Notes: generated from the letters alone by a model not told the origin. DNA of 64,000 nt from a virus (IMGVR_UViG_2651869821_000001), one strand, 5' to 3'. Shown: positions 886 to 57,153, counted from the stretch's first letter. Program-made: numbers and translations.

Positions 886-1448
886 GCTGTCGTGCAAATT
901 GGCTATGTGCGGGTGTCAACAAATGACCAGAACACCGATTTACAGCGAAACGCGCTGAAGTGCGCAGGATGTGAGCTGATATTTGAAGACAAAATAAGCG
1001 GAACTAAAGCAGAAAGGCCGGGGCTAAAAAACTGCTCCGGACATTAACTGCAGGAGACACACTGGTCGTATGGAAGTTAGATCGCCTTGGTCGCAGTATG
1101 CGTCATCTGGTCGTTCTGATAGAGGAGCTGCGGGAGCGTGGCGTTAATTTCCGCAGCCTGACCGACAGCATAGACACGTCGACGCCAATGGGGCGATTCT
1201 TCTTTCATGTCATGGGCGCACTCGCTGAAATGGAACGTGAATTGATTGTGGAAAGAACTCGCGCCGGACTGGAGGCGGCAAGAGCGTATGGACGCATTGG
1301 TGGCCGACGACCGAAACTAACATCGGAACAATGGGCACAGGCCGGACGCCTGATTAAAGCTGGAGAATCACGCAAACGTGTGGCTCTTATATACGACATT
1401 GGACTATCCACTCTTTATAAAAAATTCCCCGCATCGACAAAATCATAA
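886..1448 (+). pseudogene. Gin/Cin/Pin/Hin-family serine DNA invertase, split by a -1 frameshift in an A6 run (1026..1031)
   Basis: GTG start with AGGGGAG RBS; VQIGYVRVSTNDQNTDLQRNAL..ERPGLKK (catalytic Ser region). The second ORF continues TAGDTLVVWKLDRLGRSMRHLV..GRIGGRRPKLT..ALIYDIGLSTLYKKFP (C-terminal HTH). The two track ORFs 751..1047 and 1098..1448 join into one invertase if one A is added in the homopolymer. Confidence 0.85.
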
Positions 1449-1514
1449 TATATGTATGTTAGTACTTACTATATAAATATGGTATAAACTATCCATCTAT
1501 CTGTTTGACTTTTC

Positions 1515-1850
1515 ATGGAGGAATTAATGTCGAACGAGATGGCAGGTGTTACGCCTGAACAGGTGGAGCGTATTGCCGCTATCGTTGCGCGAGAAGTTGT
1601 TGGTAAGTTAGGTAAGGAGTTACGAGAGGAGATTGGTCAGGAGGTTAATGATCAGCTCAAAACCTATTTTGGCGATATGACACCTGCGCAACACAGCATT
1701 CAACACTCAAACTTAGATAAGCTTCTGAATAGGTTAGACACCATTTCCAGTGGTTTTTTTGGGGGCATTGTCTCCAAAATTACGTCGATTCTAATCACAG
1801 CACTGATTTTGGGTCTTGCCGCCTATGGCGTAAAAAGTGGAATGAAATAA
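1515..1850 (+). CDS. Small protein with one C-terminal TM segment; possible holin or lysis regulator
   Basis: RBS GGAGG upstream; soluble coiled N-terminal part then ITSILITALILGLAAYGV TM; first gene of the lysis cluster. Confidence 0.3.
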   Translation: MEELMSNEMAGVTPEQVERIAAIVAREVVGKLGKELREEIGQEVNDQLKTYFGDMTPAQHSIQHSNLDKLLNRLDTISSGFFGGIVSKITSILITALILGLAAYGVKSGMK

Positions 1851-1863
1851 CAGGAGATCACGG

Positions 1864-2556
1864 ATGAATACTCCAAGAGGAATTAGAAACAATAACCCTG
1901 GCAATCTTGATAAGGGATCGCCGTGGCAGGGGTTAATCAATAATCCTTCCGAATCACGTTTCTGCACGTTCAAAGATCCAGTTTGGGGAATTAGAGCACT
2001 GGCAGTTACGCTTATCACTTATCACGATAAACGCCGCGCAAGAGATGGCTCCAGTATAGATACCATCCGCGAAGTCATTGAACGATGGGCGCCTCCACAT
2101 GAGAACAACACTACGGCATATATTAATGAGGTAGCAAAAGCTGTTGGTGTTTCTCCGGATATGACAATAGATCTTCACAACTATGACACCATTAGACCGT
2201 TGGTTGAAGCCATTATTCGACATGAGAATGGTCGTGGGCCTCTTAAAACTCCAAATACATGGTATGCCTCAGAAATAGTCGAAGAAGGTCTTCGTCGTGC
2301 AGGTATCGTTAAGCCTGTCAAAACAGTTAAATCCGTTCCTGTTACTAAAGAAACAGCTGGAGCGACTGTTACTGCTGGCATTGGGTTAGCGCAACTTGCC
2401 GACGTAATGCCACAAGTCTCAATCGCGATGGATAAAGCCCAGGGGCACATTACTAGCGGTGATACGGTCCGCATTATTTTCGGTATTGCAACTATTGTAG
2501 TAGCCGGCTTTATCGCATGGTCTCAGGTTCGTAAACATCAACAGGGGATAGTCTGA
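1864..2556 (+). CDS. Putative peptidoglycan hydrolase (muramidase-like endolysin) with C-terminal TM anchor
   Basis: N-terminal GIRNNNPGNL..W.G signature that I associate with phage muramidase-family endolysins; C-terminal IIFGIATIVVAGFIAW hydrophobic helix; directly precedes Rz/Rz1. Confidence 0.45.
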   Translation: MNTPRGIRNNNPGNLDKGSPWQGLINNPSESRFCTFKDPVWGIRALAVTLITYHDKRRARDGSSIDTIREVIERWAPPHENNTTAYINEVAKAVGVSPDMTIDLHNYDTIRPLVEAIIRHENGRGPLKTPNTWYASEIVEEGLRRAGIVKPVKTVKSVPVTKETAGATVTAGIGLAQLADVMPQVSIAMDKAQGHITSGDTVRIIFGIATIVVAGFIAWSQVRKHQQGIV

Positions 2557-2810
2557 TGCTTACTGGCAGCCTATTTTCACAGATTAAAAGTGGTCTGATG
2601 ACGTTGGCTGCCGTTCTTTTAGTGCTTGTCGGGGCATATTCATTGGGTGGGAGAGCGGCTCGACAAGCACTTGAAGAAAAGGCCAGACGAGAAGATAACA
2701 GGCGACTACAGAATACCGTGGATGAGAAAAATGAGACTATCAACGAGATACGGCGTAAGGATGCTTCTGTCGTTCATCATGAGCTTCATGATAAGTGGAT
2801 GCGTGATTAA
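2556..2810 (+). CDS. i-spanin (Rz-like)
   Basis: ATGA start overlap with the upstream gene; N-terminal TM (LMTLAAVLLVLVGAY) followed by charged coiled-coil periplasmic region. Confidence 0.6.
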   Translation: MLTGSLFSQIKSGLMTLAAVLLVLVGAYSLGGRAARQALEEKARREDNRRLQNTVDEKNETINEIRRKDASVVHHELHDKWMRD

Positions 2811-54995: not shown

Positions 54996-55021
54996 TTCGG
55001 CCATTAATAACAGGAAAGATT

Positions 55022-55309
55022 ATGAAATTACGTGTTTGGCATATACCTCAAGTCCCAATGGAGCCTTTTTATATTGAAGTATCGAATGTAGAGGAAGGGG
55101 TGAAGTTTATGGATGCTCTCGCAGCTTATGATTGCTTTCAGTTCGAAAACAAAATAAAGCCAGACTATTGCAACGCCAATGGACTACAGATGTGGGATGA
55201 GAGCTTAACCGAAGATGAATTGGTCGAAATGGAATTAGAAGATCGATGGGTTGATTGGTGTAACGAGCACTTTGATGACCCTCGGGAATACTTAAATAGC
55301 CTTAGTTAA
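55022..55309 (+). CDS. Small acidic Trp-rich protein
   Basis: 95 aa with many D/E and W residues; followed by hairpin TAAGCCGC-GAAA-GCGGCTTA. Confidence 0.45.
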   Translation: MKLRVWHIPQVPMEPFYIEVSNVEEGVKFMDALAAYDCFQFENKIKPDYCNANGLQMWDESLTEDELVEMELEDRWVDWCNEHFDDPREYLNSLS

Positions 55310-55413
55310 TATAAGCCGCGAAAGCGGCTTATTCCCTCTATTAAAAATTGTTTGCCTTAACGATTTTGAAATAATAACACCAATGAGAAAACAATTTGTT
55401 TAGTGGTGAAATC

Positions 55414-57099
55414 ATGAATACAGATCTTTCAATCGTTGACACTTCCAGTACAAACGCTCATATCGAATTCAGGCATGAAATGGGGGTTATTCACGAAATC
55501 GTAGCTGAATGCGAGAAAGAGATCGTATTTATGAACCAAGTCCACGACTTCGTTTATGGTGACGAACGACATAACATGATCAATCGATTACTGCGATTGA
55601 ATCACCGTCCGGATGATGAGCTTACTCGCTTTAACAGACCCTGTATCGATAAGGTCGACCTGGAATGGGTGAAACAGAATATCTGGGCCGAGTACTGGAA
55701 GAAGGTCACGGATATGACGAATGTTTTGCTGATAATGCCTGCTGCTCGTCGGGATGAATGGCGCGAACAGTTTATCGAAGGGAAGCAGGAAACAACAAAA
55801 ACAGACAGAACTGGCTATCAGATGAGAGTGAAAGAGTTCGTCGGCGTGCCTGAGTTCAAGGCTGAGACGGTCATTCCAACAATGCTCCATCTGCTGAATG
55901 ACAGACATAAATATCTTTCCGAGCGAGTGTACGGCTTGTTCAAGGCGCTAAGCCCAGCACACAAAACTAACAAAACGAATGGATTTAGTGAGCGTCTGAT
56001 CATTGCAAACTGCATATCTGAATTCTGGCGGGATAGCGTCAGCGTGAACTACCACAAAGAGGACTACATCGACGATCTGCGCGTCATGCTTCATTTCTTC
56101 GCGCACAAAGAGTTTATCACCATCAACCGAACAACGGAGATGCTATCAGCTGCGTATCGGGCGAACGACTGCCAGACAGGTGACTGGATGAATGTCGACG
56201 GAAATCTTATGCGCGTGAAGATGTTCAAGAATGGTAATGTTCACTTCGAGATACATCCTGACGTGGCCTGGAAGCTGAATGAAGTACTGGCATACAGTAT
56301 GCCTGCAGCAATCCCGGCGCCATACCGTACTGCACCAAAAACACGAGCACCAAAAGAGTTCGGATTAATCCAGAAGACGATCTCCGAACATGTTCGTACC
56401 GCTCTTCGTGGCGGTAGATTCAGTAAAGACAATGGCGTCTGGTACTTTTTCGATTCCAAGCTACAGAAAACCCAGTCGGATGAGCTGGAGCGTACACTGA
56501 CCTTTATTGGCGGCGTGAAGGAGAATACGCATTGGCGATTTCCATATGAGGCTGGACATACGCTCAATACAATTGTGGCCACAGGGTTAATTCCGGACGC
56601 AAAATCACACCAGTTCTACCCTACCCCGCGGATAATTGCGGAGTACGTAGCCAGAGCTATTGAACTGCAATCTGGGGAGACGCTTCTTGAACCTGAAGCC
56701 GGGCGCGGAGATCTACTGGCTTATGTAGAGACCAGGCAGGAGGATGTTACCTGTATTGAAGTAGCACCTCTCTTTGCTGAAATTCTTCGTGGTAAAGGGT
56801 ATGTAAACACGGTCTGCTGCGACTTTATGAAGTGGTCTGATGATAACGCTGGTTATATGTTCGATAAGATCGTAATGAACCCACCCTATTCTCTCGGTCG
56901 ACACAAAGAGCATACAATGGCCGCGCTTGGACATCTGAAAGTTGGTGGGCGACTTGTGGCTGTGTTGCCTGGCGACGCTCCAGTTCTGAATTGGTTGACG
57001 CTGGACAATTACGTTTACGCAAAAGGGAAATCTTTTAGAGATGAATTTGAAGACACGGGAATCACTGTCAGTGTGTATGTTTTCAAACGAGTTAAATGA
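55414..57099 (+). CDS. Two-domain protein: N-terminal about 400 aa of unknown function plus C-terminal gamma-class N6-adenine DNA methyltransferase
   Basis: C-terminal order HQFYPTPR (motif X), LLEPEAGRGDLL (motif I), IVMNPPYS (motif IV); start at ATG 55414. Confidence 0.7.
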   Translation: MNTDLSIVDTSSTNAHIEFRHEMGVIHEIVAECEKEIVFMNQVHDFVYGDERHNMINRLLRLNHRPDDELTRFNRPCIDKVDLEWVKQNIWAEYWKKVTDMTNVLLIMPAARRDEWREQFIEGKQETTKTDRTGYQMRVKEFVGVPEFKAETVIPTMLHLLNDRHKYLSERVYGLFKALSPAHKTNKTNGFSERLIIANCISEFWRDSVSVNYHKEDYIDDLRVMLHFFAHKEFITINRTTEMLSAAYRANDCQTGDWMNVDGNLMRVKMFKNGNVHFEIHPDVAWKLNEVLAYSMPAAIPAPYRTAPKTRAPKEFGLIQKTISEHVRTALRGGRFSKDNGVWYFFDSKLQKTQSDELERTLTFIGGVKENTHWRFPYEAGHTLNTIVATGLIPDAKSHQFYPTPRIIAEYVARAIELQSGETLLEPEAGRGDLLAYVETRQEDVTCIEVAPLFAEILRGKGYVNTVCCDFMKWSDDNAGYMFDKIVMNPPYSLGRHKEHTMAALGHLKVGGRLVAVLPGDAPVLNWLTLDNYVYAKGKSFRDEFEDTGITVSVYVFKRVK

Positions 57100-57153
57100 T
57101 AAGTAATTACTTACCTAATTTATGTGAAAATAGAAATCCAGTTGAGGTGAAAC

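Follow-up and report, generated by a model that had tools for sequence, protein, structure and literature searches.

A conserved 20-bp palindrome at promoter regions of an SSU5-like phage-plasmid, a candidate operator of an element-encoded repressor

What reads a short palindrome that recurs ahead of gene after gene in the same phage genome, and with what effect? We addressed this question in a 64,000-nucleotide stretch of viral DNA (IMGVR_UViG_2651869821_000001; the window), which belongs to an SSU5-like phage-plasmid and shares 99.6% identity with the Salmonella plasmid AnCo3. The first-pass annotation had described about 20 intergenic copies and proposed that they are either binding sites for a dimeric regulator encoded by the element or a dedicated class of promoters.

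A fixed-length palindrome conserved between genes

All 19 strings listed earlier are present in the window (five of them off by one base), but the variable spacing of 2-6 bp did not survive re-alignment of the window sites, which revealed one element of fixed length, 20 bp, with exactly 6 bp between two 7-mers. Its consensus, ATAAGTAAGTACTTACTTAT, is a perfect palindrome with halves ATAAGTAAGT|ACTTACTTAT (ATARGTAAGT|ACTTACYTAT). With a symmetrised position weight matrix (PWM) trained on the window sites themselves, about 21 distinct sites (25 PWM positions) scored at least 14, compared to 0.13 in second-order Markov shuffles of the window, and ATARGTA-N6-TACYTAT matched exactly 7 times, against about 0.002 expected from base composition; the recurrence is therefore real. 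Twenty of the 21 sites were intergenic, that is, outside the coding sequences annotated in the near-identical AnCo3, so the earlier impression that none lies in coding DNA held with one exception, at 19155 inside a cobT-like ORF, which is conserved in SSU5. This site had been overlooked, as had a doubtful one at 16038 and a core-only copy at 17681 before an XRE-family gene. The copies are dispersed as described, but not confined to 1445-57125: about 10 more follow beyond 57 kb, head and tail genes included, which brings the whole element to about 30 with its structural genes. A fixed plus-strand orientation had also been claimed; both strands match identically, and because orientation is meaningless for a palindromic site, the argument built on it is invalid (sites are accordingly given here without strand).

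Applied to other genomes, the same PWM detected 27 sites in SSU5, 33-36 in Rhizobium phage V1VFA-S and, within the first 100 kb of the Cyrano genome, 24; shuffles gave none. In the RefSeq annotation of SSU5, 24 of 27 sites were intergenic in a genome with a non-coding fraction of 11.6% (p = 7e-20), the intergenic excess for which the first-pass annotation had suggested looking. Conservation at syntenic positions, likewise proposed as a check, was seen in both SSU5 and Cyrano, where the motif formed an island of conservation (86% identity vs 51-61% in the flanks, 34 orthologous comparisons). It was retained in relatives with 30-57% protein identity and 58-63% GC (V1VFA-S, 59% GC), and an Acinetobacter phage-plasmid carried the variant ATTAGTAAGCGCTTACTAAT. 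Across 71 distinct sites the two half-sites varied largely independently, G.T and A.C mismatches were equally common (59 vs 55), and no strand bias indicative of an RNA hairpin was found in the motif sites. Together with the symmetric consensus, these features point to recognition of duplex DNA by a dimeric protein rather than to a plus-strand RNA hairpin.

Position of the motif relative to genes and predicted promoters

Every promoter below is predicted, as a match to a sigma70-like consensus; site scores are PWM scores, and conservation refers to syntenic sites in SSU5 or Cyrano. Such matches showed no overall enrichment in the window, but 10 of 28 plus-strand predictions overlapped or abutted motif sites, which make up about 2% of the DNA. 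Relative to the -35 and -10 elements the motif adopted at least four registers: +1..+20, spacer, over the -10 and over the -35. At 29660..29679 (ATATATAAGTACTTACTTAT, score 25.6) it serves as the spacer in TTGAAA-17-TATCAT (29654-29682), a predicted promoter that is strong, matching 10 of 12 consensus positions; a terminator (29624-29644) lies directly upstream of the motif, and -35, motif and -10 are all kept in SSU5 and Cyrano. The conserved copy at 26123..26142 (ATAAGTAAGTACTGATCTAT, 24.1) is likewise the spacer of TAGATA-17-TATTAT (26117-26145), and another conserved one at 41843..41862 (ATAGGTAGGTGCTTATCTAT, 23.9), with a hairpin and then nrdA downstream, lies within TTGATA-17-TAACAT (41840-41868). 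The -10 of TTTACA-17-TAGTAT (33583-33611) is contained in the motif at 33600..33619 (ATAAGTTAGTATCTACCTAT, 21.6; identical in SSU5 and Cyrano), and the -35 of ATGACT-17-TATAGT (14048-14076) in that at 14041..14060 (ATAGGTAATGACTTACCTAT, 24.7), between the minus-strand gene 12679-13998 and phoH. Motif bases 1-2 are overlapped by the -10 of TTGCCA-17-AAAAAT (51367-51395; -35 kept in SSU5 and Cyrano) at 51394..51413 (ATAGGTATGTAATTACTTAT, 27.4; ATG 11 nt 3'), and by a -10-like TAAAAT at 37155..37174 (ATAAGTATGTAATTACTTAT, 27.5), 5' of a metallophosphoesterase/SbcCD-like operon. Just 5' of the copy at 4309..4328 (ATAAGTAAGTATCTACCTAT, 26.4; kept in SSU5 and Cyrano; ATG at 4345, 16 nt on) is TTCCCA-17-TATGAT (4268-4296), placing the motif at about +6..+25, while that at 46590..46609 (ATAGGTATGTGGTTACTTAT, 22.8), 15 nt 5' of the start of the thymidylate synthase gene, lies 12 nt 3' of TTGCGA-18-TAAAAT (46549-46578). 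A weaker copy at 46427..46446 (AATTGTAAGTACTAACTTAT, 16.9) overlaps a stop codon and TTGTAA-17-TATATT (46429-46457), and the end of that at 52436..52455 (ATAGGTAAGTACATACCATT, 22.9), immediately 3' of a stop codon, is touched by the -35 of TTTACT-17-TAAAAT (52454-52482).

The remaining sites were placed relative to genes and terminators. The conserved copies at 53613..53632 (ATAAGTAAGTGTTTACCTAT, 26.4) and 57099..57118 (ATAAGTAATTACTTACCTAA, 25.9; 35 nt 5' of ATG 57154) overlap the stop codons of rnhA and a DUF4942 gene, respectively; that at 11350..11373 (ATAGATAAGTATTTACTTAT, 26.2; second register at 11354, 21.5; kept in SSU5 and Cyrano) adjoins the stop of ORF 11052-11357, with tRNA-Asn (12080-12154) downstream; and that at 20528..20547 (ATAAGTAATCACTTACTATA, 17.2; identical in SSU5) begins 17 nt past a stop codon and ends 59 nt before ATG 20607. 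Three more are kept in SSU5: 33272..33291 (ATAAATAAGTACTTACCAAC, 22.6), with a GC-rich hairpin immediately 5', a Shine-Dalgarno sequence (SD) AAGGAG beginning at the motif end and an ATG 13 nt further; 8668..8687 (ATAAGTAAGTACACGACTAT, 15.3; right half weaker), with a terminator (8634-8650) immediately 5' and a start codon 10 nt 3'; and 7759..7778 (ATAAGTAGATGCATACTTAT, 22.4), between divergent genes, with 43 nt separating it from ATG 7822. A weak copy at 1450..1469 (ATATGTATGTTAGTACTTAC, 14.2), 45 nt 5' of a holin-like ORF at 1515, has stronger syntenic counterparts (SSU5 27474, Cyrano 26657), and the site within cobT-like coding sequence at 19155..19174 (GTAGATAGGGACTTACCTAC, 15.7) scores 21.1 in SSU5 (43661). 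The doubtful copy at 16038..16057 (ATAAATGATTCCATACCTAT, 15.8), upstream of the integrase gene, belongs to another inverted repeat, AATGATTCCATA...TATGGAATCATT. The window PWM scan detected no motif upstream of the parA-like gene (3115) or repB (34929-36173), and most genes listed as expressed in Cyrano lysogens (PMC9928086) had no full upstream motif among the sites mapped to the first 100 kb of the Cyrano genome; a weak copy precedes CYRAN_81, and the CYRAN_117 operon promoter falls outside the scanned 100 kb.

The -35 beside most sites is poor in the AT-rich enteric genomes. In V1VFA-S, 12 promoters matching TCCC-N13-15-GCTATAA carry the motif 1-8 nt 3' of their -10, about 7 further promoters of this form lack it, and at late-gene sites GCTTGCA + motif + AAT provides a -35, the motif as spacer and a -10, TACAAT. 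The suggestion of a dedicated promoter class is thus not supported, given a symmetric motif, at least four registers and a Rhizobium promoter type found with and without it; the accompanying remark that the sites are not sigma70 -35/-10 pairs is correct for the motif itself, although the motif overlaps such pairs. This arrangement agrees with that of an operator bound by a dimeric repressor, and from palindromy and promoter overlap we infer binding by a dimeric regulator of the element, the other alternative raised earlier, acting in repression rather than activation.

Candidate binders and rival explanations

Our best candidate for a motif-binding repressor, with chances we put slightly short of even, is a 128-aa XRE-family HTH protein encoded at 17267..17653 on the minus strand (PHROG 8 transcriptional regulator, E = 7e-11). 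Its AF2 model is a five-helix HTH, with Foldseek matches to Stl, C-proteins, 434 Cro/repressor and SPC32H Rep. Homologs are carried by 1002 plasmids, about 100-115 kb in size, and, adjoining the cobT-like operon, by Rhizobium phages and the Acinetobacter phage-plasmid; HTH residues Q28, N39 and N41 are invariant over homologs of 31-100% identity. The core-only copy at 17681..17700 (TCTGGTAAGTGCTTACCGAT; full PWM 8.5, core PWM 18.7), whose core GGTAAGTGCTTACC is a 14-bp perfect palindrome, lies 28 nt 5' of the XRE start codon, and the promoter predicted for the XRE gene, TTTACA-16-TAATAT (17726..17699, minus strand), overlaps its edge with the -10. Of 41 distinct regions upstream of XRE genes in IMG/VR, 38 have rGTAAGyACTTACC abutting the -10. 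The Cyrano homolog is reported to be expressed in lysogens (PMC9928086). SSU5 is the sole relative lacking the XRE gene and has a deletion at this locus relative to all 822 related plasmids, some 99% identical; SSU5 nevertheless retains all its sites, which counts against the XRE protein, since a universally conserved binder would fit the phylogenetic profile better.

ParB-like proteins would be such a binder. The main rival, though an unlikely one, is that one of the two in this element is loaded at dispersed palindromes and silences genes globally or organises DNA in the manner of KorB or Noc. Outside the window, their genes (homologs of SSU5_125 and SSU5_126) open the late operon; they have a motif in their own upstream region and are shared by all the examined genomes that carry the motif, among them SSU5 and the Rhizobium and IMG/VR relatives. 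Both proteins have ParB_N domains, and SSU5_125 aligned with Spo0J/ParB/Noc over residues 13-161, which presumably include the Spo0J HTH region (1vz0). KorB and Noc are ParB-family proteins with dispersed palindromic sites; KorB sites, however, often lie tens to thousands of bp from promoters, whereas the motif sits exactly on core promoter elements, as with a classical occluding repressor. The ParB-like genes are moreover absent from the Cyrano lysogen-expressed list, which makes them poor candidates for maintaining silencing, and they adjoin terminase genes, suggesting a role in packaging. We consider it improbable that the motif is instead the site of a phage activator bringing host RNA polymerase to a neighbouring -10, a counterpart of the Lpa-dependent -22 box in P1. 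P1 late promoters read AAGTnACTT + 4 bp + TAnnnT, a similarity to the motif centre AAGT|ACTT that counts against a repressor; motif positions 18-23 are often TATnnT, with TATCAT recurrent, and a good -35 is missing at most enteric sites. That genes downstream of sites are silent in lysogens fits activator and repressor alike. Yet tblastn found no Lpa homolog, several sites have complete promoters with a good -35 around them (TTGAAA-17-TATCAT at 29654; GCTTGCA...TACAAT in V1VFA-S), the 12 V1VFA-S promoters carry the motif 3' of their -10 and have motif-free equivalents, the register is not fixed, and where an ATG follows within 10-17 nt, transcription starting 10 nt 3' of the motif would leave the SD out of the mRNA.

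An RNA hairpin in 5' leaders or between cistrons, serving as processing site, stabiliser or target of a translational repressor, for instance an FljA-like protein of the element, is very improbable. Many sites do lie 10-25 nt 5' of start codons, directly ahead of the SD, and the element has a gene for a full-length FljA-family protein (Pfam PF03614, E = 1.5e-65), FljA being known to block fliC mRNA translation (PMC2652032). Pairing on the transcribed strand, however, is not selected (G.U 59 vs A.C 55; covariation weak or none), spacer-type sites lie upstream of the predicted start, +1-type sites would leave the left arm untranscribed, the fliC leader has no motif-like sequence, and V1VFA-S yielded no FljA homolog. 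A promoter recognised by the phage's own sigma factor or RNA polymerase, disfavoured most strongly and hardly credible, would account for about 20 bp conserved just 5' of genes, often past terminators, as with T7-type promoters, and in distant relatives a gene for a sigma-70-family protein does lie between the cobS-like gene and dnaE. But a symmetric site carries no direction, separate -35/-10 elements stand beside the motif in varying registers, the slot of that sigma gene holds only a 67-aa ORF here (21842-22045), and no RNA polymerase or sigma gene was noticed in the annotations of AnCo3, SSU5 and Cyrano.

A proposed repressor-operator circuit

Collectively, sequence evidence favours, at a probability of roughly 0.6, reading the 20-bp palindrome as the operator of a dimeric repressor encoded by the element, with the XRE protein as candidate binder. 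The repressor would bind at about 20 promoters in the window, or about 30 over the complete phage-plasmid, and because the motif overlaps core promoter elements or the first transcribed bases, it would stop initiation by host RNA polymerase; sites that sit between genes and lack an evident promoter may block read-through, as stoperators do. One protein could thereby silence replication, nucleotide-metabolism, lysis and structural genes during plasmid life, while plasmid-maintenance genes (parA-like, repB) have no site. The XRE protein may limit its own synthesis through the weaker core-only operator on its promoter, and since it has no peptidase domain, induction would probably proceed through an antirepressor. 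Against this reading, lysogeny repressors seldom act directly on head and tail genes. Immunity repressor/operator pairs usually diverge fast, whereas from Rhizobium to Salmonella the operator is almost unchanged and the XRE protein falls to 31-38% identity, which is unexpected for an immunity determinant.

The SSU5-like family is widespread, and the palindrome is most likely how one repressor silences its lytic genes. Such a circuit is of a known type but seems not to have been described for these plasmids. In its deletion of the XRE gene, SSU5 parallels lytic D29, which arose by deletion from a temperate parent (PMC5712189), and the arrangement of motif and promoter is comparable in geometry to the C1 operators of P1 and to the operators and stoperators of mycobacteriophage L5.

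A conserved 20-bp palindrome across SSU5-like phage-plasmids

Few large plasmids of Enterobacterales are as common as the SSU5-like phage-plasmids. Next to nothing has been described of their regulation, and other members of the group have been reported as carriers of resistance genes. The window belongs to such a phage-plasmid, from Salmonella. Window positions 20000-40000 were 99.6% identical to the AnCo3 plasmid (NZ_KY515226.1, 105,994 bp) and 83% identical to phage SSU5, and 957 other plasmid records (Escherichia, Klebsiella, Enterobacter, Yersinia and Salmonella) matched this stretch as well; about 1000 PLSDB records matched the window, Yersinia plasmids among them (e.g., Y. 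pestis Nepal516). The window encodes lysis, partition, replication, recombination and nucleotide metabolism functions, almost all on the plus strand. A 100-bp stretch at about 36174-36276 showed 84.6% identity to the P1/P7 plasmid origin oriR (DnaA box, Dam sites) and adjoins a RepB/RepA-like initiator gene (34929-36173), so the plasmid replicon is P1-like.

The motif is real, strongly non-random and deeply conserved. All 19 strings quoted in the first-pass annotation were found in the window, five of them off by one base, and once aligned they formed a single fixed-length element (ATARGTA, six bases, TACYTAT) whose inner six bases are also conserved, so that the consensus ATAAGTAAGTACTTACTTAT is a perfect 20-bp palindrome. 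Exact matches to ATARGTA-N6-TACYTAT numbered seven in the window (about 0.002 expected from base composition), and a symmetrised weight matrix recovered about 21 distinct window sites at a score ≥14, compared with 0.13 in second-order Markov shuffles. Because the matrix was trained on these same window sites, its behavior in other genomes matters: it detected 29 sites over the complete AnCo3 sequence, 27 in SSU5, 24 in the enteric relative Cyrano, and 33-36 in the Rhizobium phage V1VFA-S (0 in shuffles). The proposal of a motif repeated genome-wide therefore stood against shuffled controls, in the window as in its relatives. Searches of the literature on SSU5, pHCM2 and pMT1 regulation, and for the motif strings themselves, returned no description of it.

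In SSU5, which has a full RefSeq annotation (11.6% non-coding), 24 of 27 sites were intergenic (P = 7e-20), and many overlapped the preceding stop codon or began less than 20 nt after it. The earlier remark that no copies were seen inside coding regions held for 20 of the 21 window sites and failed for the one at 19155, which lies within a cobT-like gene and is conserved in SSU5. The fixed orientation ascribed to the motif proved empty, because a palindrome scores identically on both strands. The sites are dispersed across more than 100 kb, and AnCo3 copies beyond the window lie before the portal gene, after the major capsid gene and ahead of tail genes, so the motif does not mark one temporal gene class. 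At 46427-46609, two copies 163 bp apart stand on either side of a strong terminator (46512-46532) before the thymidylate synthase gene, and the stretch they enclose may hold a short transcript or a small ORF. A 12-bp inverted repeat upstream of the integrase gene (16041-16073; AATGATTCCATA ... TATGGAATCATT) yields a spurious weak motif match at 16038; it may serve as a site for a recombinase or a regulator, or fold into a hairpin.

Window sites were paired with their SSU5 and Cyrano orthologs via the downstream gene, and across these 34 comparisons the motif was 86% identical versus 51-61% for the 20-bp flanking blocks, which confirmed that related phage-plasmids keep it at matching positions. 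Scanning IMG/VR with ATARGTAAGTNNTTACYTAT retrieved many SSU5-like contigs together with contigs of 58-63% GC bearing several copies apiece; the latter encode terminase, portal, capsid, helicase and primase proteins 30-57% identical to, and syntenic with, their enteric counterparts, and these contigs are distant relatives. Their nearest named phage is V1VFA-S (36 sites in 118 kb, 59% GC). The Acinetobacter phage-plasmid pDETAB4 carries a variant, ATTAGTAAGCGCTTACTAAT, with an unchanged core (variant half-site ATTAGTAAGC). Since one motif is common to phages of Rhizobium, Acinetobacter and enterics, a host transcription factor is an unlikely binder; we know of no E. coli operator that matches it.

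Promoter geometry and the repressor reading

An RNA hairpin on plus-strand transcripts, acting as a processing site or translational operator, would tolerate G.U pairs and not A.C pairs. Across 71 distinct sites and ten symmetric position pairs, G.T combinations (G.U in RNA) numbered 59 versus 55 for A.C, and the association between half-sites was weak or absent (Fisher P = 0.04-1.0), a pattern indicative of a protein dimer that reads the site as duplex DNA, and one that led us to reject the hairpin. A second repeated element, at window 4170-4225 and 52046-52101 (AnCo3 80617; SSU5 33473 and 78319; Cyrano 31175 and 78099), has a 14-bp GC-containing stem (CCTGCTTCCGTATA / TATACGGAAGCAGG) enclosing a 27-nt AT-rich loop (TTAAATAATAAATAACTTATTAAATAT, the same in both window copies), with CTTTTT after one copy, and is kept in relatives; it looks like a terminator with an unusually long loop or a protein-binding hairpin.

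A generic promoter scan revealed no overall excess of sigma70-like matches in the window; 10 of the 28 plus-strand matches in window 1-60000 overlapped or abutted motif sites, which make up about 2% of the sequence. The registers varied: the motif lay in the spacer at 26117 and 29654 (TTGAAA-17-TATCAT, 10/12 positions), the -10 overlapped its first two bases at 51367 (TTGCCA-17-AAAAAT) or lay within it at 33583, the -35 lay within or touched it at 14048, 41840 and 52454, and at 4268 and 46549 it followed a few bases downstream of the -10. The -35 elements beside the sites at 29660 and 51394 are kept in SSU5 and Cyrano, and an A at position -2, present in 15 of 20 sites, makes nAnnAT together with the first two motif bases. 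Several sites are directly preceded by intrinsic terminators (8634, 29624, 33245) and thus mark transcription-unit starts. The information profile of 80 sites had weak flanks, which excludes a single fixed -35/-10 register around the motif. The suggestion of a dedicated promoter class was not supported, the motif being symmetric and the sigma70-like elements standing in variable registers; no sigma or RNA polymerase gene was noticed in the annotations of AnCo3, SSU5 and Cyrano. Some sites, such as those between terL and the portal gene, have no clear promoter, and their position hints at a possible stoperator role.

In V1VFA-S, where AT-rich signals are conspicuous, early-type genes are preceded by yTCCC, 13-15 nt, GCTATAA, 1-8 nt, the motif, an SD sequence and the start codon. 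GCTATAA resembles the alphaproteobacterial -10 (consensus CTATAT), and if it is the -10, the motif would span about +1 to +20. Among these yTCCC/GCTATAA promoters, the motif lay 1-8 nt downstream in 12, about 30 nt downstream in two and was lacking in about seven, so promoter and motif are separable. The structural genes have a different context ("GCTTGCA-a, motif, aat"), which reads as a -35-like CTTGCA with the motif in the spacer and a putative -10 (TACAAT) formed by the last three motif bases and three more. On its plus strand, V1VFA-S has about 20 occurrences of the signature yTCCC-N13-15-GCGCTATAA (e.g., 2969, 85688, 96617, 100755, 107219 and 114283; sequence handles L141-L143), which may be the promoter class of a sigma factor of the phage's own: a sigma-70-family sigma factor is encoded between a cobS-like ATPase and dnaE in V1VFA-S (29869-30513; handle L142) and pDETAB4 (15100-15765; handle L144). 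In enteric elements this slot holds only a 67-aa ORF (window 21842-22045, PHROG 6337).

An activator site or promoter element would be expected at a fixed position, whereas a repressor operator could vary in register from -35 to +25. The symmetric site does overlap core promoters at several positions over this range, which is the pattern expected for an operator, and the set of sites is best explained as the operators of one global repressor. The plasmid-maintenance genes parA-like (3115) and repB (34929-36173) lack the motif. In Cyrano lysogens, RNA-seq placed the XRE gene, toxin-antitoxin pairs and a few morons above background (PMC9928086), and when this published list was compared with sites in the first 100 kb of Cyrano, most of the expressed genes were not preceded by a full motif; for CYRAN_81 the copy is weak, and the CYRAN_117 operon has its promoter outside the scanned part. 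These unmarked maintenance and lysogen-expressed genes agree with repression. Silence in the lysogen would by itself fit an activator too, and it is the geometry that decides between the two.

The XRE protein and competing binders

The best candidate for the binder, put forward tentatively, is an XRE-family HTH protein of 128 aa (window 17267-17653, minus strand). It matched PHROG 8 (E = 7e-11), with no Pfam match at E ≤ 0.01 and nothing useful among PDB sequences. Its AlphaFold (AF2) model comprises a five-helix HTH (helices 12-23, 28-35, 41-47, 55-65 and 69-80; pLDDT about 80 over residues 11-80) followed by extra helices, and Foldseek aligned it with the SaPI repressor Stl, C-proteins (C.AhdI), 434 Cro/repressor and a Salmonella phage repressor at probability of about 1 with weak E-values; the predicted fold is thus of the Cro/CI type. 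Homologs were found in 1002 plasmids of about 100-115 kb, including those of Yersinia, Klebsiella and Acinetobacter; three Rhizobium phages also have one, as does every SSU5-like phage record of plasmid-state origin. The gene adjoins a cobT-like operon in enteric, Acinetobacter and Rhizobium genomes, and residues Q28, N39 and N41, in and before the recognition helix, are invariant over 31-100% identity. Its own promoter region reads cTTTACA-16/17-TAATATC-rGTAAGyACTTACC (TTTACA-16-TAATAT in the window), a good match to a sigma70 promoter by sequence, whose -10 abuts a 14-bp perfect palindrome equal to the motif core; this layout, kept in 38 of 41 distinct upstream regions, would fit negative autoregulation via a weaker operator. 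PHROG searches of the ORFs at 57-64 kb identified no regulator.

Immunity operators normally diverge fast. The operator has hardly changed between the elements of Rhizobium, Acinetobacter and Salmonella while the XRE protein falls to 31-38% identity, and mainly for this reason we place the XRE assignment at less than even odds; such stability from Alpha- to Gammaproteobacteria is contrary to the usual rapid turnover of immunity specificities and calls for explanation. A 189-aa minus-strand ORF (15392-15961) has no family match. It corresponds in position to CYRAN_43, which is reported to be expressed in lysogens more strongly than any other Cyrano gene (723-fold over background; PMC9928086), and as tblastn of its protein against Cyrano gave no match, the link is one of position only.

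SSU5 lacks the XRE gene, together with the rest of a module of about 5.5 kb (window 12600-18230 versus SSU5 42640) that is present in the window and in 822 of 822 related plasmids and contains a 439-aa minus-strand ORF, phoH, a Gp49-like gene, glutaredoxin, two minus-strand ORFs, the integrase, XRE and a 70-aa ORF. None of the 822 plasmids gave an unbroken match across the SSU5 junction, and additional DNA is present there in plasmids with 98-99% identity to SSU5. SSU5 therefore appears to stem from a recent deletion that removed the integrase-XRE module and spared the operators. We infer that the loss of XRE may have made SSU5 virulent; the lytic phage D29 likewise arose by deletion from a temperate parent (PMC5712189).

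The XRE protein lacks a peptidase domain, Cyrano is inducible by ciprofloxacin, and a LexA box of consensus quality (TACTGTATGAAAATACAGTA, 63612-63627) lies 5 nt upstream of an ORF at 63633-63911 (92 aa, PHROG 2100, function unknown), which is therefore, as an SOS-controlled gene, a candidate for encoding an antirepressor. A second CTGT-N8-ACAG occurs at 16127-16142, 26 nt before the integrase start.

The main rival to XRE is a pair of ParB-like proteins (homologs of SSU5_125 and SSU5_126, encoded outside the window). KorB and Noc, which are ParB relatives, act at dispersed palindromic sites, and both ParB_N proteins, encoded at the start of the late operon, occur in every genome examined, including the XRE-less SSU5; residues 13-161 of the SSU5_125 alignment to Spo0J probably include the HTH region. 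However, the ParB-like genes are absent from the list of lysogen-expressed Cyrano genes (PMC9928086), and the motif sites coincide with promoters instead of lying some way off. A lesser rival is a FljA-family protein, also outside the window (AnCo3 73452-73976, minus strand; 16731-17255 in sequence handle L002), with homologs SSU5_121 and CYRAN_114 and a full-length match to PF03614, repressor of phase-1 flagellin (E = 1.5e-65; PHROG 1444), which may repress host flagellin or serve as a phage regulator; against it as the binder, the FljA target, the fliC leader of Salmonella and Citrobacter, has no motif-like site (best PWM score -3.9), and BLAST detected no homolog in V1VFA-S. Its gene shares a minus-strand operon with a DEAD/UvsW-like helicase, and the protein is kept at 58-63% identity in SSU5 and Cyrano. 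Candidates drawn from P1 were rejected: tblastn for Lpa against the window, AnCo3, SSU5 and Cyrano gave chance-level matches (E ≥ 1.6), no C1 homolog was found by tblastn, and the P1 late-promoter box has a similar core, but its central base is missing from the motif, the spacing differs and several motif sites have a good -35.

A broader alternative, which we consider improbable, is that the motif is not an ordinary immunity operator and is instead the target of an ancient silencing system common to all SSU5-supergroup phage-plasmids, from those of Rhizobium and Acinetobacter to Yersinia pMT1 and Salmonella pHCM2. In one form, a KorB-like ParB-family protein could be loaded at about 30 promoter-embedded palindromes; in the other, XRE could block both initiation and elongation at symmetric stoperators. 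Site near-invariance would then reflect a constraint other than immunity, and cross-silencing between very distant phage-plasmids would be predicted.

If the reading of one global repressor is correct, the motif charts the silenced transcription units down to individual promoters and puts forward a master repressor that can be tested. XRE supplied in trans should then confer immunity to phage SSU5, related phage-plasmids should repress each other, and titration or inactivation of the repressor should lead to induction or curing of the plasmid.

Comparison with known systems

Circuits with a repressor acting at dispersed sites are already known, and the motif in these elements would be a new instance; the value of the finding lies in a named, testable regulator and in the unusual conservation of the site. 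By analogy, the closest functional counterparts would be the operators and stoperators of mycobacteriophage L5 gp71 and the dispersed C1 operators of P1, and the design of one repressor with dozens of dispersed sites would be extended to a symmetric, dimer-type operator. The gp71 sites of L5 (cluster A), asymmetric 13-mers of which there are more than 20, occupy promoters and short gaps between genes (PMC9283540), and like the motif they are spread genome-wide over early and late operons; they have been proposed to block both initiation and elongation (PMC9283540). The deletion in SSU5, which takes the XRE gene and spares the sites, parallels the L5/D29 case, D29 being a deletion derivative (PMC5712189). 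In contrast, the 13-bp L5 sites are bound in one orientation only by a gp71 monomer via two domains, whereas a 20-bp perfect palindrome has no orientation and implies a dimer, and the candidate here, a small HTH protein of XRE/434 type, bears no relation to gp71.

P1 (AF234172) is likewise a phage-plasmid, and its C1 operators are widely dispersed, overlapping the -35, the -10 or the start of different promoters. Unlike the symmetric 20-bp site, however, they are asymmetric 17-mers, and P1 structural genes are controlled indirectly, under Lpa, whereas here the same motif precedes head and tail genes. P1 late promoters share a short palindrome with the core AAGT..ACTT just upstream of the -10 hexamer, and a single box can serve two divergent promoters (LP26/LPpmgL); the P1 box differs in being AAGTnACTT, 9 bp long, 4 bp before the -10, without a -35, confined to late genes and activator-dependent.

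KorB (IncP) and Noc resemble the present case in having a dozen or more dispersed palindromes bound by a promoter-silencing ParB-family protein, and two ParB_N proteins are encoded here, but our sites coincide with core promoters and the ParB-like genes belong to the late operon and are not seen expressed in lysogens. The Cro-CI systems of lambdoid phages, 434 and P22 share dyad symmetry and a comparable operator length, along with a five-helix HTH (in our candidate, as modelled) and an operator over the repressor's own promoter (here, a putative one). Their operators lie at two sites in one immunity region and differ by immunity type, whereas those described here are scattered over about 30 promoters and are near-invariant across bacterial classes.
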